From: an uncultured Bacteroidia bacterium
Lineage (GTDB): Bacteria > Bacteroidota > Bacteroidia > Bacteroidales > ML635J-15
Length of the DNA: 64,000 bases
Reading direction: 5' to 3'
Assembly (NCBI GenBank): GCA_902800045.1
Contig: CADCCZ010000006.1
Span: 66,174-130,173, forward strand
Position numbers and translations under genes: made by a program. This document shows, piece after piece, positions 1,382 to 13,937 of the stretch. The notes beneath the pieces were generated by a model, which saw nothing but the letters and a program-made list of their open reading frames with translations, ran no database searches and was not told the DNA's origin. Positions within the stretch are counted from its first letter, which is position 1. Every line of letters begins with the position of its first letter.

Positions 1382-4300
1382 ATGATTAGAAAATTGTCAA
1401 ATATGAAGAATTTTATTTCAACAGTAGCAATGATTCTTCTGCTTTGCACCGTAGCATTGGCAGAAAATCATCAGACTTCGTACAGCAAAGTTGCTAACGA
1501 ACATCAGATTACATTTACCTTGGGTGACTGGAATCTGGAAACATTAACATCAAACGGAACAACATTCCAGGTAATCGACGCAGGAATATCCGCAGTATCG
1601 AACAGAAAAGGCTGGGCAGAACTGCCAATGATGAGTGCAGCTATACAGCTTCCTGCCGACAAGAACGTAGGTCTCGAAGTAATTTCGTCGGACTACTACG
1701 AAATGAGGCTCGAATTCCCGGCATTGCCTTCGCGCGGAACTATCTACCGCAACCAGAATCCGTCAGAAATCCCATATTGGGTTGACCCGGCTTCGGCAGT
1801 AAACGAGTTCTATCCTAGCGAAAACGTAATCCTCGACGAACCGTTCATCTTCAGGAACGTAAGAGGTACTACCGTAAGGTTCTACCCGTTCCAGTACAAT
1901 GCTGCCACCCAGACATTAAGGGTTTACAACAGCATTACCATCGGACTTGCCGAAAACAACCAGCCGGCAATCAACCCGCTCACAAACAATACGGGCGTTG
2001 ACTCGCGCGAAGTTATTGGTATCTACAAGAGCCTGTTTCTCAACTACGAGCCGAGCAGAACCAGCGCAAACCTTACTGCAGGCGAATTCGGCGACATCCT
2101 GGTTCTCACACCGAGCACCTACGAATCGACAATGCAGCCTTACGTTCAGTGGAAACGCGAAATGGGCTACAATGTAACAGTTCAGACCGTAAGCAGCGGA
2201 GCAAACGTAGTATCTACAATATCGTCGGCATACTCGTCGAACCCCAACCTGCTTTATGTTCAGCTCGTTGGCGACTGGGCCGACATCAAATCGGCAACAC
2301 TCGGCAGCTCTACCTGCTCTTCGTGTCCTACCGACCCGAGAATGGGATGCGTTGCCGGTAACGACAACTACCCAGACCTTGCAATAGGACGTTTCTCTTG
2401 CTCCAACGCAAGCAACCTCGCAGTACAGATAAACAAGGCTATCGACTACGAAAAGAACCCCGACATGACTTCAGGCTGGCGCGAAACATTCATAGGCGTA
2501 GCTTCGGAAGAAGGTCCTGGCGACGACAGCGAATACGATTATACTCAAATCCAAAGGATTTACAACAACAAGTTGTCGCAGCTCGGAACCTACACTACGC
2601 ACAAGCAGCACTATGCTAACTCCGGTTCTGTTTCGGCATCGAGCGTTGCAACTAGCGTAAACGCAGGTGCATCTACAATCGCTTACTGCGGACACGGCGC
2701 AGAAACCTACTGGGTAACCAGCAACTATAGCACCACTAACATCAACAGCGCAACCAACGGCAGCAAGTTGCCGTTCATCGTATCGGTAGCCTGCGTAAAC
2801 GGTGCTTTCCACGAATCGGCAGACTGCTTCGCAGAAGGATGGCTTCGCAAGAGCGGCGGCGGTGCAGTTGTAACACTTATGTCAACCATCAACCAGCCAT
2901 GGCAGCCACCTATGAGAGGTCAGGATTACTTCTACGACATTCTTACTGGCGGTTTCAACTACGACAACGATGGCATTTCTGCAACTGCAGGTATCAATAC
3001 TACAGAACAGCGTACTCACTGGGGATCGATTGTTATCAACGCATTCACACTGATGCTTAAGGAATCGAGCACTACCGACGATATCGAAACCACAAAGACC
3101 TGGTCGACTTTCGGTGACGCTTCGTTGCAGCTCAGAACTAAGACTCCAGATGTTATCACCTCATCGAACAACGAAATGGTAATGGGCGTTCCATACACCA
3201 CTACAATAAAGATTGGTTCAACTCCCGTAGAAAACGCTCTTGTCTGCATATCGCAGAACGGAAGCTACTACAGAGGCTTTACAAATGCCAGCGGTCAGGT
3301 AACAATAACCAACAACTTCTCTGTTGGCGAAGCTTTGCTCGTTGTTACTGCATTCAACACAACAACCATCTACCAGACTATTCCGGTAAATTCGGCTAAC
3401 GAACCATACGTATCAATCCAGAGCTACTCGCCGCAGAACGTAAGCTTCGGAACAACCAGCGTTCTCTCGATGACTCTCGTCAACATGGGCGGTGTTGCAA
3501 CCAATGGTGCTACCAACGTTAGCCTCACAACTTCCGACCAGTACCTCACCCTCAACACTGCAAGTGCAACTTTCGGCACAATGGCAGCACAGGGCGGTAC
3601 AGCATCGAGCAGCGCATTCAACTTTACCGTTGCCGAAAATACTCCCGACGGACACGTTGCAACTATCAACGCAACAATAACCAACGGCTCGTACACATGG
3701 AACGGCACAATGAACATTACCATTGCCGGTCCTAACTGCGACGCACCAACAGGACTTAACGTTACTGCCAACGGCTCAAGCGCAACCATCACTTGGGATA
3801 CGCAGACTATCACACCAGTTACCATAAGCGACGATTTCGAAGGACATACCGCTTTCACAATCAACTCTCCGGGTACAGTCGGTTGGACTTACATCGATGG
3901 CGACGGAAGCACAACCGGCGCGATAAGCAACTACAACTCCTGGACTAACGCAAGGTCAGAAATGGCATATATAGTTTTCAATCCTTCGCAGGTAACTTCA
4001 CAGTATGGAAGCGGAAACCTATCGTCGTCGATAGCAGCACACTCGGGAAGCCAATTCCTTGCAAGCTTCTATGCTTCAACACCGCCAAACAACGACTGGA
4101 TTGTCAGCCCAGAACTTAACTTTGCAGAAAACTTCACTTTCTCATTCTACTATAGAGGCGGACACAAGACCACATACACCGAATCGTTTGAAGTTTACTA
4201 CTCTACTACAACAAACGAACAATCTGCATTCACAAATCAGCTCGGAACAGGAACAGCAACAGGCAGCACATCCGCAAGCGCATGGTCGCAAAAGACCTAC

Positions 4301-5536
4301 ACCGTACCTGCAGCTGCAAAATATGTTGCTATACGATGCACCTCAAACGACCAGTACTACTTCTGCATCGACGACATCACAATCAGCGGAACAGAAATTA
4401 GTGGCGCAGGTGCTGTAAATCTATACGACAACGGAGTTCTCGTTGCATCGAACATTACTACTGGCACTTATACGGCAAACAACCTTACTGCCGGACAGCA
4501 CTGCTTCAGCATCCGTGCCGTATGTGGCGACAACAGTGAATCGATGGCTGTACAGGAATGCGTAAACGTAACAAGTTCAGCTCCTAGCTACACCGTAACA
4601 GTTAATGCTGGCAACGGCGGTACAATAACTCCAAGCGGAACCCAGACCGTTTACCAAAACAACGACTTCACTTTTACCGTTACTCCAGACGACTGCTACG
4701 AAATAGCAAACGTTACCATAGACGGAAACAATGTAAACCTCAATGCTAACAACTCGTACACAATCAACAATATTACAGCAAACCATACTGTAAACGCTAC
4801 ATTCCACCTATTGTCGTACACAATAGCAGCAAGTGCAGGCGACAATGGTTCCATCAGCCCTGCTGGCAACACTAATGTCAATTGTGGCGACAATGCAACA
4901 TTTACCATTACTCCAGACGAAGGCTACGAAATTGCCGGCGTTACAGTCGACGGACAGAACATAGGTTCGCCAAGCACCTACACATTCTCGAATGTTGAGA
5001 CAAACCACACAATCAATGCAACATTCAGCATGATACCGGCCGAAACCTGCTACACAATTACAGGACTTGCAGTTGCTGTTGAGACTTACGGGAACGTCCT
5101 CAACTGGAATGCTGCCGAAAACGCAGTTTCGTACAACATCTACCGCAACAACGACAACACTGTTCTTGCAAACGTAAACTCGACCAGCTACATCGACATT
5201 AACGGAAACGTTGGCGACAGCTACCGCATAGTAACAGTATGCCAGCATGGTGAATCGGAATCGTCGGAAAGCGTTACTGCCACAACTTCCAGCATCGATG
5301 AAAACAGCATTTCGCTCAACATCTACCCGAACCCGACCGACGGCAAGTTCACAATCGAATGCAGCGAAATGATAACCATCGAAGTATTCGACATGGTTGG
5401 ACAACTAGTAGAAAAAATCGATGTCAATGCCAACTCTAGCAGCATCGATGCTTCGTCGTGGACAAATGGCGTTTATACCATCCGCATTGCAACATCCGAC
5501 ACCAACATCGTTGTAAAACAGCTTATCAAGCAATAA
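1382..5536 (+). CDS. Secreted multidomain peptidase C25 (gingipain-like) with T9SS C-terminal sorting domain
   Basis: A signal peptide is present (MKNFISTVAMILLLCTVALA). YCGHGAETYW and SVACVNGAF provide a His/Cys dyad about 33 aa apart, as in gingipains. Two ~70-aa repeats of the type YT(V/I)...G(G/S)I(T/S)P(S/A)G...ANHT(V/I)NATF occur. A DWIVSPELNF adhesin/MAM-like segment is present. The C-terminus LNIYPNPTDGKFTIE...VYTIRI is a T9SS CTD. Confidence 0.8.
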   Translation: MIRKLSNMKNFISTVAMILLLCTVALAENHQTSYSKVANEHQITFTLGDWNLETLTSNGTTFQVIDAGISAVSNRKGWAELPMMSAAIQLPADKNVGLEVISSDYYEMRLEFPALPSRGTIYRNQNPSEIPYWVDPASAVNEFYPSENVILDEPFIFRNVRGTTVRFYPFQYNAATQTLRVYNSITIGLAENNQPAINPLTNNTGVDSREVIGIYKSLFLNYEPSRTSANLTAGEFGDILVLTPSTYESTMQPYVQWKREMGYNVTVQTVSSGANVVSTISSAYSSNPNLLYVQLVGDWADIKSATLGSSTCSSCPTDPRMGCVAGNDNYPDLAIGRFSCSNASNLAVQINKAIDYEKNPDMTSGWRETFIGVASEEGPGDDSEYDYTQIQRIYNNKLSQLGTYTTHKQHYANSGSVSASSVATSVNAGASTIAYCGHGAETYWVTSNYSTTNINSATNGSKLPFIVSVACVNGAFHESADCFAEGWLRKSGGGAVVTLMSTINQPWQPPMRGQDYFYDILTGGFNYDNDGISATAGINTTEQRTHWGSIVINAFTLMLKESSTTDDIETTKTWSTFGDASLQLRTKTPDVITSSNNEMVMGVPYTTTIKIGSTPVENALVCISQNGSYYRGFTNASGQVTITNNFSVGEALLVVTAFNTTTIYQTIPVNSANEPYVSIQSYSPQNVSFGTTSVLSMTLVNMGGVATNGATNVSLTTSDQYLTLNTASATFGTMAAQGGTASSSAFNFTVAENTPDGHVATINATITNGSYTWNGTMNITIAGPNCDAPTGLNVTANGSSATITWDTQTITPVTISDDFEGHTAFTINSPGTVGWTYIDGDGSTTGAISNYNSWTNARSEMAYIVFNPSQVTSQYGSGNLSSSIAAHSGSQFLASFYASTPPNNDWIVSPELNFAENFTFSFYYRGGHKTTYTESFEVYYSTTTNEQSAFTNQLGTGTATGSTSASAWSQKTYTVPAAAKYVAIRCTSNDQYYFCIDDITISGTEISGAGAVNLYDNGVLVASNITTGTYTANNLTAGQHCFSIRAVCGDNSESMAVQECVNVTSSAPSYTVTVNAGNGGTITPSGTQTVYQNNDFTFTVTPDDCYEIANVTIDGNNVNLNANNSYTINNITANHTVNATFHLLSYTIAASAGDNGSISPAGNTNVNCGDNATFTITPDEGYEIAGVTVDGQNIGSPSTYTFSNVETNHTINATFSMIPAETCYTITGLAVAVETYGNVLNWNAAENAVSYNIYRNNDNTVLANVNSTSYIDINGNVGDSYRIVTVCQHGESESSESVTATTSSIDENSISLNIYPNPTDGKFTIECSEMITIEVFDMVGQLVEKIDVNANSSSIDASSWTNGVYTIRIATSDTNIVVKQLIKQ

Positions 5537-5588: not shown

Positions 5589-5603
5589 TTTCGCACTTCA
5601 GAA

Positions 5604-5725
5604 TTTGCAACGATACTAGCATTACAAATGCTCATACTCATCTCAGGCAGATTACAAATCCGCCTGAACAATATGTCCTTCGGGATTTGTAATCCCGAAG
5701 GCTCGAATATTAGGATTTGAAATCC
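5604..5725. repeat. Intact copy of a composite palindromic repeat (left half 5604-5673, right half 5675-5725)
   Basis: Contains GATTACAAATC / GATTTGTAATC and CCTTCGGG / CCCGAAGG inverted pairs. The left half recurs at 7006-7075 (54/55 identity over the core). The right half recurs at 10927-10977 (48/51). Confidence 0.85.
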
Positions 5726-5835
5726 GTAATAAAGCACTAATAGCATAATAGCTTAATTATCAATAATTTAACATTTTGATATAATTTTACATCATATAAA
5801 TTTATATGATATAGTTTTATATGATATAATTTTAT

Positions 5836-5859: not shown

Positions 5860-6993
5860 ATGAACATACCATTTGCATACGGGAAGATTGTGGAAAATAA
5901 CGATTTCACAGATAGGACAGAAGAAACATCTCTCTTGAGAAATAATTTTATGTCGCTTACCAATACGGCAATTATTTCACCTCGCCGTTGGGGAAAATCA
6001 TCTTTGGTTGCAAAAGCCATAAAGTCTGTCAAGGAGGAACAGGATGACATTTTGTTCGTGAAGATGAATATTTTCAAGACCGAAAATCCGCAAGAGTTTT
6101 ATGCAACTTTTGCCAAGCGAATAATGGAAGGCATCTCATCGTCGGCAGAGTCGTTGCTAACTAACGCCAAGGATTTTATTGCTCGCTTGCTTCCCAAACT
6201 GTCAATTTCTGACCCTATTGGACAGTATGAAATTGCACTTGGGGTGGACACAAAAAACTCTCCTATTGAAGAAGACATTCTGGATTTGCCGCAGCAGATT
6301 GCCCAGCGTAAGAAGAAAAAGGTTGTTGTATGCATCGACGAATTCCAACAAATAGGTGAATATTCCGATGCATTGAAATTCCAGAAGACACTACGCAGCC
6401 ATTGGCAGACACATTCTGATGTTGCCTATATACTATATGGAAGCAAAAAGCACATGATGATGAACATTTTCGGTGAATACAACAGTCCTTTCTACCGATT
6501 TGGCGATATGATGTTTTTGCAGAAAATATCCAACGATGAATGGCAGAAATATCTTGTCGGCAGATTTAAAGACACGGGAAAATCAATTACACAAGCACTT
6601 GCCAAGTACCTTGCCGAGCAAGTAGAAAATCATCCATACTATGTGCAGCAACTTGCCCAATATGCTTGGTTGAGAACAACGCGCACTTGCTCTACTGCCA
6701 TTGTTGACAATGCCTTGCAAGCAATGCTCGATTCGCTTAACTTACAGTTTGTCAACATAATGGACTCATTGACCGAGAAGCAACGGAATTTTCTTTGTGC
6801 AGTGTCCAACGATGTTAAAAATTTCTCGGCCTCGGATACCTTGCAACGCTACAAACTTGGCACCAGCGGTAACATCCGCATCATAAAGGAAGCCTTGAAG
6901 AAACGCGACCTGATTGATGAAACGGGCAAGGACATACAAATCCAAGACCCGATTTTTAAATTGTGGATTATTAGGGAATACGCTAAAATGTAA
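5860..6993 (+). CDS. Orphan AAA+ ATPase (archaeal-type ATPase / DUF234-like family)
   Basis: Walker A SPRRWGKSSLV and Walker B VVCIDEFQQI. A paralog of the same architecture lies at 27855-28979. Confidence 0.7.
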   Translation: MNIPFAYGKIVENNDFTDRTEETSLLRNNFMSLTNTAIISPRRWGKSSLVAKAIKSVKEEQDDILFVKMNIFKTENPQEFYATFAKRIMEGISSSAESLLTNAKDFIARLLPKLSISDPIGQYEIALGVDTKNSPIEEDILDLPQQIAQRKKKKVVVCIDEFQQIGEYSDALKFQKTLRSHWQTHSDVAYILYGSKKHMMMNIFGEYNSPFYRFGDMMFLQKISNDEWQKYLVGRFKDTGKSITQALAKYLAEQVENHPYYVQQLAQYAWLRTTRTCSTAIVDNALQAMLDSLNLQFVNIMDSLTEKQRNFLCAVSNDVKNFSASDTLQRYKLGTSGNIRIIKEALKKRDLIDETGKDIQIQDPIFKLWIIREYAKM

Positions 6994-7005
6994 TTCATAT
7001 CGGCA

Positions 7006-7075
7006 TTTACAACGATAAGAGCATTACAAATGCTCATACTCAACTCAGGCAGATTACAAATCCGCCTGAACAATA
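7006..7075. repeat. Left half only of the palindromic repeat
   Basis: gcattacaaatgctcatactcaactcaggcagattacaaatccgcctgaacaata matches 5619-5673 with one mismatch. The similarity ends abruptly at 7075. Confidence 0.85.
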
Positions 7076-7107
7076 GTCAATAACAATATTTGGGTTTTGC
7101 ATACAAT

Positions 7108-8013
7108 TCACAAAATCTTTTTGCTGTATTTCTTTACCAGATCTTTCGCATCCTGTAAGAGCCGTTTACGCAACCAGTTCGGACTTATAACCTCAACTTC
7201 CTTTCCCATAGCTCGCACTGTATTGATGAAATCATCGGTTGGGACCAAATGCAATTCAAATAGGTTGTTGGCAATCTCTTTCTGGGAACGGTGCAGAGGC
7301 AGCGAACGCAAATACTTTGCGCGTGTGTCTGAGGTCTTTAATTGTATATGTTCCGCTTTGCCATCCGTCACTATCATACCAAAATAGCGAGAAAAATAAT
7401 CGTCTGCAGAAAAATCTGTGGGCAGTTTGAACAATTTGTCGCTAATTTTCACATCCTTCATGCGGTCGAGTGCGTAAAGACGCAGAGAATCGTGGAAGCC
7501 GGTGTGAGCCAACACATACCAACGCCGACCAAAGTAGCGCAATGCGTAAGGTTCAATCTCAAACTCGCGTGCGGTTCGCATTTCGTAACTTTGGTATGTG
7601 ATTGACAGCCGACTGTTTTCGCGCATTGCAGTGGTGATTTCTGGAAGAAAAATGTTGCTGCCAGCCGGCGTATCTTCAAGAAGTATGCGGTCTGCCAAGT
7701 CCAGATTTTCGCTAACCATCTGGTTTACAGCAAATGCAGAAAGCAAGAACTGAGTGTTTTTATTGCATCCCGAGATGTCGTTTTCGATATGGTATTTTTT
7801 CTCTTTTCGGTCATATACGATTTGAATGTCGAACAAACTTAATATGTTATCTTTCATTCGGATGAATGTACGACGAGGAATTGTCCCCTTTCCATCATCA
7901 TTGAAGACGGAGTTTGCCCAGCGGCTGTCGATTTCACTTTTGGACAGGCCTTTGCTGTACGACAATAGTTCTATTAGCCAGAGGTAACGAGCGAAAAGAG
8001 TGGTAGGGGTCAT
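7108..8013 (-). CDS. WYL-domain transcriptional regulator (wHTH-WYL-C-terminal extension)
   Basis: N-terminal wHTH-like segment (LWLIELLSYSKGLSKSEI). WYL core YALRYFGRRWYVLAHTG...LRLYALDRM. The ATG lies 2 nt after the stop of the upstream nuclease gene. Confidence 0.75.
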   Translation of the reverse strand: MTPTTLFARYLWLIELLSYSKGLSKSEIDSRWANSVFNDDGKGTIPRRTFIRMKDNILSLFDIQIVYDRKEKKYHIENDISGCNKNTQFLLSAFAVNQMVSENLDLADRILLEDTPAGSNIFLPEITTAMRENSRLSITYQSYEMRTAREFEIEPYALRYFGRRWYVLAHTGFHDSLRLYALDRMKDVKISDKLFKLPTDFSADDYFSRYFGMIVTDGKAEHIQLKTSDTRAKYLRSLPLHRSQKEIANNLFELHLVPTDDFINTVRAMGKEVEVISPNWLRKRLLQDAKDLVKKYSKKIL

Positions 8014-8015
8014 TG

Positions 8016-9824
8016 TTATTTCCAGTAGCGAGTTTCGAGATAATTAAGCAGTTCTTTGTAGTCATCGTTTCCTTTCAAGGGGGAAAGAAGTTCTTGGGGA
8101 TCGATGATACGGAATTTGGATTTATCTTTCAAATTTGGAATAAAACAATTTTCCACTGCTTCACGCAATTCTGTATTCCCATTTGGAATCACATTGAGAT
8201 GGAAGAAATTTTTTGCATATCCTTTTTGTACCAATTGTTCCGCTAACAAAGTCTGGCGCATAAGTTCATAACTTGGTTCTTGGAAATAAATGGAATGAGC
8301 TACTCCGTCTTTAGGCGTTTTAAGCCTTGCTGAACTTATTATTTTTGCTCCATAACGATAAAGGCGCGTATCATTTGTTTTGTCTTCATTTTCGTAATTT
8401 TCCGTGTATTTCCATTCAATCGGAATCAGCCATTTTTCTTCACCTTTTCGTGCCACAATCATAGCATCAATTGATGTGCAAAGAACGCCTCTTCTTGCGC
8501 CCTTATCATTTTCACCCAACATTTCATCATTTTTATAAGCAAACTCAAAAGCAATGTAGCCACCATCGTTGTCAAGAGTCGATGGAAGCACTTCATCAAA
8601 ATCCATATTAGTTGCTTTGTTTATAACTGCCAATACTGCATCTTTATCTTCTCGCAAAGCAAAAAGATGATTTAGACAATGAATTTGTGAGGAAAGTAGA
8701 TGACCAGTAGGTTCAATTCCATTTTGCCCCCACCATGCGATTTTAAAATTTTTAAAATATTTTTTCGCTAAACTTCTGATTCCGGATTCCAAATTGAAAT
8801 CATTATAATTAGTATCTAAAATATAGTCTAATTTATAGACTTTAGATTTTTCATTGTTTCCTATTTTTAGAATTCCACCAAACTTTGCCGATTCAAATAT
8901 TGGATTTGATGTCAATTTGAATTGTTTTTCTGTTTCCAAACATTTAAATTCGTGAATTGGTTTATGAAAATATCTAACATATTTGTTACTTAAATAAATA
9001 TTCAGAATATCAGACTTCCGACCTTCTATTAGAGGATGCAAAGCGTCAGCTAGCATATACCCGTTTATGTATTTACATTTCTTCGTTTTATAAAAATCAT
9101 ATAATTTCCCAAAAGAACGATAAGAAGAAGATTCGGGAATTTTAATTTCCCCTTTCATCACATCGACCATTACATTAACATAGAACATCAATTCTGATAT
9201 TATTCCTACTTTTTTGTTTGTCTTTTGTTTCAATTCATAAATATTCAATGTGTTATATTTTATACTCCATATATCTAAAAAACTACTTGGTGTTACAGAT
9301 TTTCCTTTTGATATTTCTTCATTGAACAAATGAACGGGTAATTGTTGGTTTATCACATCACAAAAAGCCTTATTTTCAGCAAGAAAAGCCCTCTCAAGTT
9401 GAGCTTCTTTATGCGAAGCTTTTTTTTCTGCATCATCATTTGGCACATTAATTACCAAATGTAATTTGTCGAATTTTATTATGTCATCTTTGAAACCATC
9501 AGAACATGCCCAAATATACATTTCTTCAAATTTTTTTAGACGGTATAAAAATCTGTTATAGTGTTCTTTTTCGTTTTTAGATGGAGAGAAACTTTTCCCC
9601 GATACTATGACTTTTTCGATATACTCAGGCAACCATGCTTTCAAACAAATGGCCCAACCTTCAAAAGCTGCTGCGTCTGTTTGCATATTTGAGCAAATGC
9701 CATTCTCTGTCATCGTAATAACAAGTTCTTTTCTTTCTGGGTTTATATTAAAATCAATATCTTTAGGAAAATTTACGCGTCTGATTTTTGAACGTAATAG
9801 GTTTAAAATTTCTTGTTTGTTCAT
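8016..9824 (-). CDS. 602-aa protein with two PD-(D/E)xK nuclease-like modules (N-terminal NucS/DUF91-like; C-terminal restriction-endonuclease-like)
   Basis: Module 1: EAQLERAF ... FLDIWSI-x9-NIYELKQK (E, D, ExK). Module 2: HLLSSQIHCLNHLF ... TSIDAMIV-x12-LIPIEWKYTE (D, ExK). The gene is strongly AT-rich. No match to a named enzyme could be made by eye. Confidence 0.5.
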   Translation of the reverse strand: MNKQEILNLLRSKIRRVNFPKDIDFNINPERKELVITMTENGICSNMQTDAAAFEGWAICLKAWLPEYIEKVIVSGKSFSPSKNEKEHYNRFLYRLKKFEEMYIWACSDGFKDDIIKFDKLHLVINVPNDDAEKKASHKEAQLERAFLAENKAFCDVINQQLPVHLFNEEISKGKSVTPSSFLDIWSIKYNTLNIYELKQKTNKKVGIISELMFYVNVMVDVMKGEIKIPESSSYRSFGKLYDFYKTKKCKYINGYMLADALHPLIEGRKSDILNIYLSNKYVRYFHKPIHEFKCLETEKQFKLTSNPIFESAKFGGILKIGNNEKSKVYKLDYILDTNYNDFNLESGIRSLAKKYFKNFKIAWWGQNGIEPTGHLLSSQIHCLNHLFALREDKDAVLAVINKATNMDFDEVLPSTLDNDGGYIAFEFAYKNDEMLGENDKGARRGVLCTSIDAMIVARKGEEKWLIPIEWKYTENYENEDKTNDTRLYRYGAKIISSARLKTPKDGVAHSIYFQEPSYELMRQTLLAEQLVQKGYAKNFFHLNVIPNGNTELREAVENCFIPNLKDKSKFRIIDPQELLSPLKGNDDYKELLNYLETRYWK

Positions 9825-9854
9825 CTCTTTATATCTTTACGAATTAATACACTA

Positions 9855-9862
9855 CAAATATA
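9855..9862 (-). promoter_or_regulatory. -7 promoter box (TATATTTG on minus strand)
   Basis: Plus-strand caaatata lies 31 nt upstream of the 9824 ATG, suggesting the nuclease-WYL pair can be transcribed on its own. Confidence 0.35.
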
Positions 9863-9892
9863 CACACAATGTTGATATATACAATATAATTT

Positions 9893-10843
9893 TTACCTAT
9901 TTATAACCTCAATTGCCCTTTCTACATCCTTTTCCGTAATTCCTATAATTGGATCGATGCGGATGAAATGGTCTTGCAGTTCGGGTAACACTTCTTTCAA
10001 GTCATCGAAGATGACGAATCGGCGCGAATCGCTGTTGGCATCAAGCACTTCGTCGAAATACCACTTTATTTCGTTGCCTCGGCACAAACTTAGCATATCC
10101 ACTTGGGTCAAGTCGGTGTCGCGCAGTTTGTCGTCCAGCAGGTGCAAAGGCGTAATATCTACAATTCTACCAGGTAAATCGCGGTCGTACCACATCCTCT
10201 GCAAGACATTCAGCCCCATATAGCGCCACGACGAACTGACAACAATACGCGCACCAGTAACATCGATTATTTTCCGCAAATTCGACACAGCCTCGGGGTC
10301 GAACAACTGACCATATTTGTCATCGCTGGGCAGACCCTTGCTTTTCAATTCGCAATAATATTTCTCGGTGTTCAGAACGCCATCGAAATCGAGAAAAATA
10401 ATCGGACAATCCTTCTCATTATCTTGTGCTGCAATCTCTTGCTCTTTTTCAAAGCAGACATCAGCTGTCGTTCTGAATACTTTCTGTTCGTTGTGCTTGC
10501 CTGTTGTCTGCCAATCCAGTAGCAACGGGCGTTCCTTTTCGACAAGGTAATCCGAACACTCCAGCAAGGTGTCCTTGTCGGTGTCGAAAAAGATGTCTTC
10601 CGTAGCCTTTGGCAACCGTCTGAAAAGTTCGCGACTTCCAATGAAGAGTTCCTTGTTCTCCAGAAAATTATTCAAAGTTCCCATAATGGTGAACTTGTTT
10701 TCCTCAATGTGGTGTAATACGGCTTCCTTTATAAATTCATCAAGCACATCTTTAAGTCTGCTTTCGTCATAATTTGCGCCGCTAGCCTTCAAATATGCCT
10801 CCAGATGTGGCATTTCATAGTAAAGTTCAATCGTTCCTTTCAT
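9893..10843 (-). CDS. Two-domain protein: unknown N-terminal domain + HAD-superfamily phosphatase domain of the HAD_SAK type
   Basis: C-terminal half: IIFLDFDGVLNTEKYY (DxDGVL motif I), IVVSSSWR (motif II-like), RGNEIKWY, FVIFDDL (motif IV). Confidence 0.55.
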   Translation of the reverse strand: MKGTIELYYEMPHLEAYLKASGANYDESRLKDVLDEFIKEAVLHHIEENKFTIMGTLNNFLENKELFIGSRELFRRLPKATEDIFFDTDKDTLLECSDYLVEKERPLLLDWQTTGKHNEQKVFRTTADVCFEKEQEIAAQDNEKDCPIIFLDFDGVLNTEKYYCELKSKGLPSDDKYGQLFDPEAVSNLRKIIDVTGARIVVSSSWRYMGLNVLQRMWYDRDLPGRIVDITPLHLLDDKLRDTDLTQVDMLSLCRGNEIKWYFDEVLDANSDSRRFVIFDDLKEVLPELQDHFIRIDPIIGITEKDVERAIEVINR

Positions 10844-10866
10844 TTTTATAATCTTTTATTTTGCTG

Positions 10867-10874
10867 CAAAATTA
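10867..10874 (-). promoter_or_regulatory. -7 promoter box (TAATTTTG on minus strand)
   Basis: Plus-strand caaaatta lies 24 nt upstream of the 10843 ATG. Confidence 0.4.
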
Positions 10875-10926
10875 TGTGCCGAATGTGCCACTATGCGGCG
10901 CAGTGCAAAAAAAATTACATTTTCTC

Positions 10927-10977
10927 GTCCTTCGGGATTTGTACTCCCGAAGGCTCGAATATAAGGATTTGTAATCC
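10927..10977. repeat. Right half only of the palindromic repeat
   Basis: gtccttcgggatttgtactcccgaaggctcgaatataaggatttgtaatcc matches 5675-5725 at 48/51. Confidence 0.8.
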
Positions 10978-11084
10978 CCAAAAAACATCGTTGAAAAAAA
11001 ACACAAACAAATCTGAATTGCGTACCCAAAATATTTATAATTTTACGCAAAATTTTTTAACGCAAACACTAATATAGAAATACA

Positions 11085-13937
11085 ATGATTAGAGAAGATT
11101 TCTACACCCGCCACGTGGGTCCGAGGGAAAGCGAATACGCTGAAATGCTCAAGAAAATCGGAGCAAAATCACTCGACAAATTCATTGATCAGGTCATCCC
11201 GACCAAAATCAGACTGAAAGAAAACCTTAAGCTCGACGAACCGCTCACCGAAGACGAGTTCCTTGTAAAACTGAAGGCTATGGCCGCAAAAAACAAGATT
11301 TACCGCTCGCTTATCGGTATGGGTTACTACGGCACTGCTGTTCCATCGGTAATCCTGCGCAATGTCTTCGAAAATCCAAGCTGGTACACTTCATACACTC
11401 CGTATCAGGCTGAAATTTCGCAGGGCCGTCTCGAAGCTCTCCTTAACTTCCAGACCGTAATCACCGAACTCACAGGAATGGAACTTGCAAACTGCTCGCT
11501 CCTCGATGAAGGTACCGCAGCAGCCGAAGCAGCAAGAATGATGTTCGAATGCCGTTCGCGTCAGGCAGCAAAGGAAGGCCGCAACGTAGTTTTCGTTGAC
11601 AAGGACATCTTCCCGCAGACTCTCGACGTTATCCTTATGCGTACCGAACCACTAGGAATCGAGGTCGAAGTTGGCGACTACAAGAAGGTAAAACTCTCGA
11701 AGAAATATATAGGTGCAATCCTCCAGTACCCGAGCGCAAGCGGCGAAATCCGCGACTATGCAAAGTTCACCGAAACTGCACACGAAAACGAAATGCTCGT
11801 AACTGCAGTTGTTGACACTATGGCTCTCGTACTGCTCAAGTCGCCGGCATCGTGGGGTGCTGACATAGTAGTTGGTAACACACAGCGTTTCGGACTTCCG
11901 ATGGGATTCGGCGGACCGCACGCAGCTTTCATGGCTACTTCCGACAAGTATAAACGCAAAATGCCGGGACGTATAATCGGTGTCAGCGTTGATAAGTTCG
12001 GACGCAAGGCTCTCCGTCTCGCATTGCAGACCCGCGAACAGCACATCAAGCGCGAAGATGCTACATCGAACATCTGCACCGCTCAGGCTCTGCTCGCAAT
12101 GATGGCTGGTTTCTACGTTGTATATCACGGACCAGAAGGAATGAGAAGAATCGCTAACAACATCTACTCATCAGCAAAATTCCTCGCTGCCGAAATCAAG
12201 AAGCTCGGCTACAAGATTGAACATACAAACATATTCGATACAGTTATCGTTAACGGCGCAGACAAGAAGGCTATCGAAAAGCTCGCTTTGCAGCGCAAGA
12301 TTAACTTCCACTACATCGATGAAAAGACCGTTGGCTTCAGCACCGACGAACTTATTTCGGTTGCCGATGTAAACAACATCCTCGAAATCTTTGCTCTCGC
12401 TGCTGGCAAGAAGGCAAAGAAGGTCGTAGATGTTCCGATGGTAAATATGGATGCTAAGTTCGCAAGAACCGACAGCATTTTCAACCAGAAGGTATTCAAC
12501 AGCTACCACAGCGAAACCGAAATGATGCGTTACATCAAGAAACTCGAACGTCGTGACATTTCTCTCACCCAGTCGATGATTTCACTCGGTTCGTGCACAA
12601 TGAAGCTCAACCCTGCAACTTCGATGTTGCCGCTCAGCTGGCCGGAATTTGCAAACATTCACCCGTTTGTTCCGAAGAACCAGGCTCTCGGTTACTACGA
12701 ACTCATCGAAGACATTTCGAAGGACCTTTCGACAATTACAGGCTTTGCAGCAACAACCTTGCAGCCAAATTCTGGAGCAACTGGCGAACATACAGGCCTT
12801 ATGATTATCCGTGCATACCACCACTCAAGAAAGGAAGCTCACAGGAATGTCTGCATTATCCCGACATCGGCACACGGAACCAACCCTGCAAGTATGGCAA
12901 TGGCAGGTTTCAAACTTGTTCTTGTCAACTGCGACGAACACGGTAACATCGATGTTAAGGATTTGAAGGAAAAGGCAGTTGCCAACAAGGACAACCTTGC
13001 TGCAATGATGATTACCTATCCATCAACCCACGGCGTATTCGAGAACAAGATTCTCGACATCGTAAAGATTATCCACGACAACGGCGGTCTTGTATATATG
13101 GACGGCGCAAACATGAACGCACAGGTAGCACTCACCAACCCGGGAACTATCGGAGCAGATGTTTGCCACCTCAATCTCCACAAGACCTTTGCTAGCCCTC
13201 ACGGTGGTGGCGGTCCTGGCATCGGAACCGTTTCGGTATGCAAGAAGCTCGTTGACTTCCTCCCGACCCACAGCGTAATTAAGACCGGTGGCAAGAAGGG
13301 CATCCGCGCTATCACATCGGCTCCGTTCGGCAGTGCAATGATTCTCCCGATTACCTACGCATATATCAAGATGATGGGTGAACGCGGTTTGAAGGAAGCT
13401 ACAAAGATTGCTATCCTCAACGCAAACTACATTGCTAGCGAACTGAAGGATACTTTCAATGTTCTCTACACTGGCGAAACTGGCCGTTGCGCACACGAAA
13501 TGATTCTTGACGTTCAGAAGTTCCGCGCTGAATATGGCGTAGAAGCAGCCGACATCGCACACCGTCTGATGGACTTCGGTTTCCATGCTCCTACATTGTC
13601 GTTCCCAGTACACGAAACCCTTATGGTTGAACCTACCGAGAGCGAAAGCAAGCAGGAACTCGACCGCTTCATCGAGACAATGAAGGTTATCAAGGCTGAA
13701 TGCGAGGACATCAAGGCTGGTAAGTACACCCGCGAGGACAATCCTCTTGTAAATGCACCTCACACCCAGTTCGAATGTACTGCAAGCGAGTGGAACCACT
13801 GCTATCCGCGTGAAAAGGCTGCCTTCCCGCTGCCATGGATCAAGGAAAACAAGTTCTGGCCTTACGTTGCAAAGATTGACAACGCATACGGCGACCGCAA
13901 CCTAGACTGCAAGTGCAACCAGCTCGAAGAAGAATAA
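11085..13937 (+). CDS. gcvP: Glycine dehydrogenase (decarboxylating), single-chain P protein
   Basis: 950 aa. Start MIREDFYTRHVGP. Family motifs SWYTSYTPYQAEISQGRLE and LNLHKTFASPHGGGGPG (PLP-lysine region). Confidence 0.95.
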   Translation: MIREDFYTRHVGPRESEYAEMLKKIGAKSLDKFIDQVIPTKIRLKENLKLDEPLTEDEFLVKLKAMAAKNKIYRSLIGMGYYGTAVPSVILRNVFENPSWYTSYTPYQAEISQGRLEALLNFQTVITELTGMELANCSLLDEGTAAAEAARMMFECRSRQAAKEGRNVVFVDKDIFPQTLDVILMRTEPLGIEVEVGDYKKVKLSKKYIGAILQYPSASGEIRDYAKFTETAHENEMLVTAVVDTMALVLLKSPASWGADIVVGNTQRFGLPMGFGGPHAAFMATSDKYKRKMPGRIIGVSVDKFGRKALRLALQTREQHIKREDATSNICTAQALLAMMAGFYVVYHGPEGMRRIANNIYSSAKFLAAEIKKLGYKIEHTNIFDTVIVNGADKKAIEKLALQRKINFHYIDEKTVGFSTDELISVADVNNILEIFALAAGKKAKKVVDVPMVNMDAKFARTDSIFNQKVFNSYHSETEMMRYIKKLERRDISLTQSMISLGSCTMKLNPATSMLPLSWPEFANIHPFVPKNQALGYYELIEDISKDLSTITGFAATTLQPNSGATGEHTGLMIIRAYHHSRKEAHRNVCIIPTSAHGTNPASMAMAGFKLVLVNCDEHGNIDVKDLKEKAVANKDNLAAMMITYPSTHGVFENKILDIVKIIHDNGGLVYMDGANMNAQVALTNPGTIGADVCHLNLHKTFASPHGGGGPGIGTVSVCKKLVDFLPTHSVIKTGGKKGIRAITSAPFGSAMILPITYAYIKMMGERGLKEATKIAILNANYIASELKDTFNVLYTGETGRCAHEMILDVQKFRAEYGVEAADIAHRLMDFGFHAPTLSFPVHETLMVEPTESESKQELDRFIETMKVIKAECEDIKAGKYTREDNPLVNAPHTQFECTASEWNHCYPREKAAFPLPWIKENKFWPYVAKIDNAYGDRNLDCKCNQLEEE

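Follow-up and report, generated by a model that had tools for sequence, protein, structure and literature searches.

A candidate anti-phage cassette of Bacteroidales pairing a hypervariable, predicted two-module nuclease with a HAD phosphatase and a WYL-domain regulator

In this work we analyzed a stretch of 64,000 nucleotides (nt) from an uncultured Bacteroidia bacterium (order Bacteroidales, from gut or rumen; contig CADCCZ010000006.1; the whole stretch is hereinafter referred to as the window), focusing on a cassette of three co-oriented minus-strand open reading frames (ORFs) that run from 10843 to 9893 (gene 1, 316 amino acids, aa), from 9824 to 8016 (gene 2, 602 aa), and from 8013 to 7108 (gene 3, 301 aa), and that encode a protein with a HAD phosphatase domain, a predicted two-module nuclease, and a WYL-domain regulator, respectively. 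The locus is a credible candidate for a new anti-phage system, which recurs in many related genomes, and we lean slightly towards the idea that the cassette functions as a WYL-gated, restriction-like, inducible defense based on the nuclease. The stop codon of gene 2 ends at 8016 and the ATG of gene 3 starts at 8013, leaving 2 nt between the two genes; ORF positions, shared strand, and this gap are exactly those given by an earlier model-generated reading of the same DNA (the sequence-only reading). The components of the cassette are the following:

9893..10843, minus strand: gene 1, 316 aa, a helical N-terminal domain (g1N) followed by a predicted cap-less HAD phosphatase of the HAD_SAK_2 family
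10409-10843, minus strand: g1N domain of gene 1 (aa 1-145), lineage-restricted and all-helical
9893-10408, minus strand: HAD domain of gene 1 (aa 146-316), Pfam HAD_SAK_2
8865..9824, minus strand: N-module of gene 2 (aa 1-320), a variable PD-(D/E)xK-like domain with D184, E197, and K199
8016..8864, minus strand: C-module of gene 2 (aa 321-602), a conserved PD-(D/E)xK domain, Pfam REase-ARP, with E427, D453, E470, and K472
7108..8013, minus strand: gene 3, 301 aa, a WYL-WCX transcription regulator
10885..10901, minus strand: candidate operator, the imperfect 17-bp palindrome GCGCCG-CATAG-TGGCAC
10867..10874, minus strand: putative -7 promoter box TAATTTTG, of the Bacteroidetes type TAnnTTTG, upstream of gene 1, as read from the sequence
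9855..9862, minus strand: second TAnnTTTG-like box TATATTTG, in the spacer between gene 1 and gene 2, also read from the sequence

While the HAD and WYL genes on either side are conserved, the nuclease gene is hypervariable in its alleles, occurring in fused and split forms and with shuffled N-modules. About 30 protein clusters resemble gene 1 at 87-100% identity, and only two resemble gene 2 at 81% or more. Contigs of related strains with close gene 1 homologs (L092-L100 and L010) carry the cassette at the same site, adjacent to gcvP. Synteny was established through these homologs; exact-protein look-ups of the products of gcvP and of the neighboring AAA+ gene, used in the search for an empty site, returned only the source scaffold and short fragments. 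This source scaffold is scaffold_71 of the ENA metagenome ERZ28613997, with which the window is identical. At the gcvP site the nuclease is encoded by two genes (300 + 334 aa) in L092-L095, by a fused gene (608 aa) with an N-module of another class in L096-L098, and in a 271 + 331 aa form in L099-L100. The DNA identities to the window are as follows:

L092: gcvP 96.7%, HAD gene 94.7%, WYL gene 93.8%, nuclease gene only short fragments of 70-90%
L096: gcvP 95.5%, HAD gene 92.1%, WYL gene 86.3%, nuclease gene only short fragments of 66-80%
L010: gcvP 94.9%, HAD gene 72%, WYL gene 75%, nuclease gene 66-69% over partial stretches

The low identity of the HAD, WYL, and nuclease genes of L010 implies that the whole cassette is a divergent allele in that strain. 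Moreover, L092 and L099 combine C-modules of 81% identity with N-modules that are unrelated to each other. As judged from these alignments, the pattern is one of allelic replacement and module shuffling, such as that known for the specificity determinants of conflict systems, and it is not that of housekeeping or repair genes. In every allele the GC content of the nuclease gene lies 10-15 points below that of the flanking HAD and WYL genes. In the window it is 0.323 for gene 2 (0.302 for its N-module), 0.443 for gene 1, 0.440 for gene 3, 0.492 for gcvP, and 0.48 for the gene of a C25 peptidase; the AT-richness previously attributed to the entire cassette is real, but it is almost wholly due to gene 2, and genes 1 and 3 are not strongly AT-rich. 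The window as a whole has a GC content of 0.404 and its first 16 kb, occupied by housekeeping genes, of 0.47-0.50, so that the remaining part must be markedly lower in GC. In L099 (5674-7972) and L100 (1267-3565) gcvP and the cassette are separated by an inserted block of small genes (HTH_34, a RelB-like antitoxin, and three unannotated ORFs), which is further evidence that this site accumulates accessory or conflict-type genes.

The analysis of the two halves of gene 2 revealed a very different degree of conservation. The C-module (aa 327-601) matched the Pfam family REase-ARP (PF22558) with E = 1e-41 (143.7 bits, cut-off 27) and, more weakly, PDDEXK_13 (E = 3e-15, 56.6 bits, cut-off 27), and on the strength of these profiles it can be firmly assigned to the PD-(D/E)xK nuclease domains. 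Residue conservation was assessed in an alignment of 19 diverse homologs spanning two unrelated N-terminal classes (A and B): the catalytic residues of the C-module core E427...D453...E470-x-K472, within the signature IPIEWKYTE, are invariant, as are many other residues of the highly conserved C-terminal half, and the very variable N-terminal half retains as invariant only L10, G56, D184, E197, K199, and G207. The alternative classes of N-module all keep the motif [F/L]D...E-L/V-K. The AlphaFold2 (AF2) model of gene 2 (mean pLDDT 81.9, about 90-97 over the C-module) gives the N-module the canonical alpha-beta-beta-beta-alpha-beta topology, in which D184 opens the second strand and the ExK motif lies on the third (D184 starts strand 185-189, E197 and K199 end strand 192-198, and helices 139-150 and 207-224 flank them); from motif, topology, and conservation, we predict that the N-module is a PD-(D/E)xK nuclease too. 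The two separate D...ExK cores noticed in the sequence-only reading, D184/E197/K199 and D453/E470/K472, were both recovered and are both conserved. The 526 detectable relatives of gene 2 come nearly all from metagenome-assembled genomes of Bacteroidales from rumen or gut, and the family has a patchy distribution restricted to this order. It is cellular only: no relatives were found in 50,697 phage records and in IMG/VR, and plasmid carriage is limited to one distant (27%) match, from Phenylobacterium, in an uninformative context. The meaning of "ARP" in the family name was not found in a full-text literature search.

To place the cassette in a wider context, we carried out a species-level survey, in which one genome per species was retained and six-frame ORFs were searched with the window proteins. 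This yielded 80 nuclease homolog loci: the nuclease has a HAD or g1N neighbor in 33 of them, a WYL neighbor in 33, both in 18, and neither in 32. The HAD/g1N and WYL partners are almost always co-directional with the nuclease and within tens of nucleotides of it, the WYL gene standing before or after the nuclease depending on the locus and being usually the last of the operon. Other Bacteroidales (L003, L008, L010, L013, and others) have the whole trio as well, with protein identities of 45-60%. The nuclease is therefore the core of the system, and HAD and WYL are facultative partners; the co-conservation of the three genes envisaged by the sequence-only reading holds as a non-random linkage, but not as an obligatory association. 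In L007 and L044, g1N-HAD and the REase-ARP module form a single polypeptide, and L007 still has the displaced N-module, encoded separately and on the opposite strand. According to the Rosetta-stone argument, these fusions suggest a physical cooperation of the phosphatase with both nuclease modules, and the best-supported reading of the gene 1 protein is that of a physically associated accessory to the two-module nuclease. The nuclease of many loci is encoded by two adjacent genes instead of one, for an N-module of about 270-330 aa and a REase-ARP protein of about 320 aa, and at least 46 of the 80 loci have an N-module bearing the D...E-x-K signature according to a crude regular expression; since this classifier of fused and split forms misassigns some loci, the counts are lower bounds only. 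In several cases (L001, L009, L012, L014, L019, and L054) g1N is located directly upstream of the nuclease without a HAD domain.

The commonest neighbors of the loci devoid of both partners belong to Type I restriction-modification (R-M) systems (N6_Mtase, HsdM, in 12 loci; Methylase_S, HsdS, in 7), the others including AAA_21, AAA_15, SIR2, and STALD. In at least 12 of the 80 loci the nuclease lies inside a Type I R-M operon, between hsdM and hsdS or hsdR, as in Prolixibacter bellariivorans, where the order is hsdM-nuclease-hsdS-...-hsdR. As a side observation, the HsdR protein (1303 aa) of the nuclease-hosting Prolixibacter operon (L005/L006, 12782-16693) has an extra Pfam match to Y1_Tnp, a transposase of the IS200/IS605 type.

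As far as gene 1 is concerned, aa 148-307 matched the Pfam family HAD_SAK_2 (PF18143) with E = 2e-24 (86.9 bits, cut-off 27.5). In an alignment of 27 homologs, D152, D154, S204, and S205 of the nucleophile and Mg-binding HAD motifs (D152xD154GV, S204/S205, and D280D281) are invariant and D280 and D281 nearly so, the stretches FLDFDGVL, VSSSW, and FDD being invariant or nearly invariant; this is in agreement with the Swiss Army Knife type of HAD proposed earlier from the FLDFDGVL, VSSSWR, and FDD motifs. The AF2 model is confident over the HAD domain (pLDDT 85-98) and less so over the helical N-domain (50-70); it nearly lacks a cap insert, and its best Foldseek match is MDP-1 (probability 0.98, E = 0.011, TM(target) 0.50), followed by Scp1, CTDNEP1, and lipin. 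With an E-value above the 1e-3 line, these matches are consistent with a cap-less HAD of the C0 type, similar to MDP-1 and Scp1; MDP-1, Scp1, and CTDNEP1 are cap-less HADs acting on macromolecules. The g1N domain belongs to no Pfam family, and a HMMER scan of 1.84 billion protein representatives retrieved only 22 relatives, either stand-alone or fused to a gene 1-type HAD. Neither RNA ligase (ATP-grasp, RtcB) nor kinase nor nucleotidyltransferase genes were found in the cassette or in its immediate flanks. Two further observations concern the HAD_SAK_2 domain: the one of the window (9893-10408) matches the phage protein family phrog_1818, of unknown function, with E = 9e-28, and in other Bacteroidales proteins of about 417 aa (P0202-P0217) such a domain is joined to a Metallophos phosphoesterase of the calcineurin-like type, an architecture of the end-healing kind.

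Gene 3 matched the Pfam families WYL (E = 4.5e-17) and WCX (E = 8e-7, 29.7 bits, cut-off 23.9), and its aa 122-290 matched, among the PDB sequences, DriD (8tp8, 7e-7), the WYL proteins 9pfq and 7u02, PafBC (6sj9), and CapW (9c5g). Repressors of the CapW type, with a winged helix-turn-helix (wHTH) followed by WYL and WCX domains, release DNA upon binding of single-stranded DNA (PMC11662680), and BREX is controlled by BrxR (PMC9122589). The two TAnnTTTG boxes reported before gene 1 and gene 2 were confirmed by reading the sequence. The -7 box TAATTTTG lies 23 nt from the ATG of gene 1 at 10843, an offset that is conserved in L092, L096, L099, L010, L015, L008, and L003, and the box TATATTTG is a possible internal promoter.

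Two alignments, one of the gcvP-HAD intergenic region across strains and the other of the sequences upstream of the first cassette gene across distant loci, exposed a palindrome with the family consensus GTGCCR-CAnRR-TGGCAC, whose copy in the window precedes the -7 box by 10 nt. In the 64 kb of the window it is present a single time (0.07 occurrences expected), as it is in each of 17 other loci, always in the orientation of the operon; it is kept in loci whose proteins share only 45-60% identity. Allowing at most one mismatch, it was found near the cassette in 16 of the 33 WYL loci vs. 3 of the 47 non-WYL loci (Fisher p = 2e-5), over a background of 3 matches per 1.87 Mb. All the palindrome-bearing loci also have the HAD gene, with the palindrome directly upstream of it. 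As the WYL protein is the only DNA-binding candidate in the cassette, and by analogy with CapW and BrxR, the palindrome at 10885-10901 is most simply explained as the putative operator of gene 3. Several loci have a further operator-like palindrome, about 35 nt past the stop codon of the nuclease gene (L017, 2262-2276; L038, from 2775; L026, 4297-4311; L057, from 7885; L059, from 8004), which suggests a second regulated promoter, perhaps of the WYL gene or of the gene that follows, or a looping arrangement.

On this basis, the following scenario can be proposed. In the uninfected cell a WYL dimer would sit on the palindrome, overlapping the -33 region, and hold the expression of the operon low, gene 3 included, since this is probably on the same transcript as gene 2. 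Upon infection or DNA damage, a ligand derived from nucleic acids, probably single-stranded DNA, might release the repressor, as in the analogous cases of CapW, DriD, and BrxR. The nuclease so produced would cut the invading DNA, the REase-ARP module and the variable N-module contributing one active site each, so that a single molecule (or a heterodimer, in the split alleles) could make a double-strand break, and the fast-swapping N-module would set the target preference. The HAD domain, tethered through its helical N-domain, might act on a macromolecular substrate, most plausibly the phosphorylated ends of the cut nucleic acid, and the removal of terminal phosphates would prevent the breaks from being re-ligated. 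That the HAD dephosphorylates nucleic-acid termini in order to block re-ligation is, in our opinion, doubtful; to our knowledge, no defense system has been described that uses end-dephosphorylation as an immune tactic. Alternatively, gene 1 may have a regulatory role or may act by depletion of nucleotides in the manner of Chp (PMC12715507). The most elaborate form of the scenario, i.e., a Bacteroidales immune system in which a REase-ARP nuclease works with interchangeable second nuclease modules, swapped at a fixed locus between HAD and WYL genes, and in which a HAD within the effector complex strips the phosphates from the breaks, must be considered improbable as a whole.

Several results weigh against the interpretation of the cassette as an inducible, restriction-like defense. 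Regarding the nuclease, the Foldseek search of the full-length gene 2 model against PDB and BFVD retrieved nothing at E <= 1e-3 (best E = 0.04), even though the weak top matches (Can2, Card1, McrC, R2 endonuclease, and viral PD-(D/E)xK proteins) are all of the PD-(D/E)xK fold; family-profile searches of PDB sequences with genes 1 and 2 gave no match, the isolated N-module had no Pfam match at E <= 5, and the hhalign comparison of N-module and C-module was negative (probability <2%). Because of these negative results for the N-module, a tandem PD-(D/E)xK arrangement is firm only for the C-module, and the nuclease folds claimed by the sequence-only reading are backed by profile matches of the C-module, but not by a significant structural match. 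As for gene 1, proteins and sugar phosphates are also substrates of MDP-1-like HADs, and the assignment of phosphorylated nucleic-acid ends as its substrate, which we infer entirely, is the weakest step of the scenario. The first 120 aa of gene 3 matched no HTH profile and no Pfam family even at E <= 10, so that, of the wHTH-WYL architecture formerly proposed for it, the WYL part (with WCX) stands and the HTH does not appear in profile matches; the region may represent a divergent wHTH. About half of the WYL loci lack the palindrome at one mismatch or less. The cassette contains neither a methyltransferase nor any other self-protection gene; the host may be spared through a Type IV-like modification dependence, through tight repression combined with abortive killing, or, in the embedded relatives, through R-M guarding. 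The 18 full trio loci, as well as the window, are flanked by housekeeping genes, which near the trio loci include UvrA, MutS2, and DnaE; of the defense-island location that the sequence-only reading had proposed to check there is no sign in these loci, whereas loci of the family lacking HAD and WYL do have defense genes as neighbors. Finally, none of the models of PADLOC-DB v2.0 matched genes 1 and 2, and those that matched gene 3 were all generic WYL models; this lends no support to defense, although for genes 1 and 2 we regard the absence of matches as neutral with respect to novelty. NCBIfam gave nothing meaningful for the cassette proteins, and a literature search retrieved no published description of the gene families or of this combination of genes; like the sequence-only reading, we could not assign the trio to a named system.

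One rival explanation is a Type IV-like, modification-dependent restriction, in which only foreign-modified DNA would be cut, the N-module reading a modification or a sequence and the HAD removing phosphates from modified nucleotides or from ends. This possibility, which is a sub-hypothesis on self/non-self rather than a strict alternative, fits the absence of a cognate methyltransferase from the cassette, the nesting of relatives in Type I R-M loci (Mrr and McrBC sit in classical immigration-control regions), the hypervariability and shuffling of the N-modules, and the weak Foldseek resemblance to McrC. We regard it as unlikely, since no modified-base reader domain (SRA, YTH, DUF3578, or similar) was recognized, the N-module having no Pfam match, and since this module keeps a catalytic triad that a pure reader domain would not need; in addition, a tight WYL repression would be needless for an enzyme unable to touch the host DNA. 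Such a repression, which the overlap of operator and promoter suggests, would rather be expected of an abortive-infection or toxin-like system, in which a non-specific nuclease toxin is silenced by the WYL protein, perhaps with gene 1 as inhibitor or antitoxin, and its induction kills or arrests the infected cell. The lack of a self-protection gene would agree with this model, as would the loci in which g1N directly precedes the nuclease even without HAD, an order resembling that of antitoxin and toxin, and the R-M-embedded relatives, which recall the PrrC/RloC-type guards of Type I R-M systems. Nevertheless, g1N remains about 95% identical while the adjoining nuclease allele is replaced, and this constancy counts against an inhibitor role, as a direct inhibitor would be expected to co-vary with the nuclease; a non-specific toxin would not readily account for the rapid swap of a specificity-like module, and many members of the family (32 of the 80 loci) have neither g1N nor WYL. 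Overall, we consider a toxin of this kind improbable.

A third possibility is that of a repair or damage-response operon, where a WYL activator similar to DriD or PafBC would switch on a structure-specific nuclease and an end-healing phosphatase for damaged DNA or RNA termini. HAD_SAK_2 takes its name from RNA-repair proteins, the DNA-damage regulators DriD and PafBC are among the best PDB sequence matches of gene 3, the HAD_SAK_2-Metallophos fusions are of the end-healing type, and the trio loci stand among housekeeping genes such as UvrA, MutS2, and DnaE. On the other hand, repair enzymes are not normally allele-swapped between strains whose flanks are 95-97% identical, nor are they nested between hsdM and hsdS; in the cassette a ligase, a kinase, and a nucleotidyltransferase are missing, and with them the defining syntax of RNA repair, and the distribution is patchy and confined to Bacteroidales. 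The allelic replacement and the R-M embedding, in particular, make a repair function very unlikely, and a restriction-like, WYL-gated nuclease defense is the interpretation that we retain.

The sequence-only reading had also placed the cassette between the two halves of a split repeat. The features that flank the system, all of them outside it, are the following:

10927..10985, no strand assigned: right half of a hairpin repeat similar to repetitive extragenic palindromes (REP-like), 90% identical to 5675-5733
7000..7075, no strand assigned: left half of the REP-like repeat, 92% identical to 5598-5673, between gene 3 and the AAA+ gene
5598-5733: intact REP-like repeat
5860-6993, plus strand: AAA+ gene (ATPase_2-type), convergent with the cassette

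The repeat, of about 136 nt, is composed of four consecutive hairpins, each centered on ATT-NNN-AAT (GGATTTGTAATCC-like cores); it folds much better than shuffled versions of itself (DNA fold z = -5.3), and no Rfam family matched it. The cassette does lie between the two halves, which, once joined, match the intact copy and which are about 71% complementary to each other. These data might suggest a recently inserted mobile cassette, with the three genes delivered as a unit into the center of a palindromic repeat, or carried as cargo between terminal inverted repeats. This idea is hardly tenable: the cassette occupies the same gcvP-adjacent site in L092-L100 and L010 and contains neither an integrase nor a transposase, and the right half is a 43-nt insertion in a conserved gcvP-HAD intergenic region that is otherwise collinear with those of L092, L096, and L010. 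As the right half is absent from all these three, it must be a secondary insertion, and the cassette was not inserted into the repeat. We therefore rejected an insertion of the integron, miniature inverted-repeat transposable element (MITE), or terminal inverted repeat type, and regard the cassette as a resident, syntenic locus. The left half is found at the same place in L096, and L092 has an intact copy after the WYL gene instead. Other arrangements of intact and half copies surround variable genes of the related strains (the AAA+ gene and ORFs of 194 and 180 aa), at 12003-12131 in L092, at 11784-11858, 13141-13198, and 14273-14346 in L096, and at 7806-7858 and 12489-12617 in L099. The repeat is a REP-like element that colonizes the borders of variable segments. 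Logan assembly contigs break at repeat copies, which implies that there are many copies per genome.

The AAA+ ATPase gene was indeed found to be convergent beside the cassette. It was rejected as a fourth component because its adjacency to the nuclease cassette is rare (this lineage, L002, and L020; besides this lineage and L002, only one of the 80 species-level loci) and its orientation varies. The gene is of the ATPase_2/AAA_14 type, with a weak PADLOC match to PDC-S01 (E = 4e-5), and it is polymorphic among close strains, being present in the window and in L096-98 (96% DNA identity) and absent from L092-95 and L099-100, with repeat halves as borders; AAA+ paralogs follow the nuclease cassette in L002 and L020. 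Beyond it, a C25 (gingipain-like) peptidase of 1384 aa with a Por_Secre_tail domain of the type IX secretion system is encoded at 1382-5536 on the plus strand, between the AAA+ gene and a glycosyltransferase cluster. At the matching position of L092, L096, and L099 the peptidase is missing and a glycosyltransferase (GT2) gene or small ORFs (194 aa, 180 aa) are found instead, which makes the interval from gcvP to GT2 a hotspot of strain variation. An Rfam search of the intergenic regions, including the gcvP leader, revealed no known RNA family.

The Bacteroidales dominate gut and rumen communities, and their phage-defense repertoire is poorly charted, most discoveries having been made in Proteobacteria and Firmicutes. 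The locus offers a candidate of about 3.9 kb that can be cloned, together with a predicted operator, defined residues for three predicted active sites, and a natural allelic series for the mapping of specificity. If the HAD acted on nucleic-acid termini, this would represent a new effector logic, in which breaks are made unrepairable, and would provide a function for REase-ARP and HAD_SAK_2, Pfam families now resting on prediction alone; if the cassette were only a WYL-gated, restriction-like nuclease, its contribution would be a modest one, within a theme already known.

All three domain superfamilies are already known, and WYL-controlled nuclease defenses are a known kind; the unusual features are the dedicated phosphatase partner, the combinatorial two-module nuclease, the allele swap at a fixed locus, and the predicted operator. 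Among restriction endonucleases, two different catalytic PD-(D/E)xK domains or subunits are present in Mva1269I and in the heterodimeric enzymes of the BbvCI/Bpu10I type. Like them, gene 2 would have two distinct predicted PD-(D/E)xK sites per unit, either fused or in two adjacent genes, and it shows a rapid change of alleles; unlike them, the trio loci have no cognate methyltransferase, and the cassette, unlike Type II systems, has phosphatase and WYL partners. Gene 2 is also devoid of sequence similarity, or significant structural similarity, to restriction endonucleases of solved structure. Genes nested in Type I R-M operons include the PrrC/RloC-type guards and the Mrr-type Type IV enzymes, and the relatives of gene 2 that Prolixibacter and at least 11 more species carry between hsdM and hsdS or hsdR share this arrangement, unlike the window copy, which has no R-M neighbors; besides, the anticodon nucleases PrrC and RloC are ABC-ATPases and do not belong to the PD-(D/E)xK proteins.

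The HAD_SAK RNA-repair phosphatases resemble gene 1 in its membership of the HAD_SAK_2 family, but gene 1 is not accompanied by an RNA ligase or kinase. That HAD phosphatases can be immune effectors is known from Chp, the CARF-HAD protein of type III CRISPR systems, which is membrane-bound, activated through CARF, and depletes ATP, dATP, and IMP (PMC12715507). Gene 1 is similar to it in being a HAD phosphatase with intact catalytic motifs in a conflict-type locus, and differs from it in having neither CARF nor transmembrane segments, in being of the predicted cap-less (MDP-1/Scp1-like) type, and in its physical link to a nuclease. Lastly, the BrxR-BREX and CapW-CBASS pairs differ from the cassette in their effector genes, which are unrelated, and in the position of the WYL gene, which here is variable and usually last rather than first; moreover, the wHTH of gene 3, unlike those of BrxR and CapW, is undetectable by profile, and its operator is putative. 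As in those systems, a WYL-WCX regulator gene belongs to the operon, a palindrome overlaps the promoter and co-varies with the presence of the WYL gene, and, by analogy, de-repression induced by a ligand would be expected for the cassette (PMC11662680, PMC9122589).

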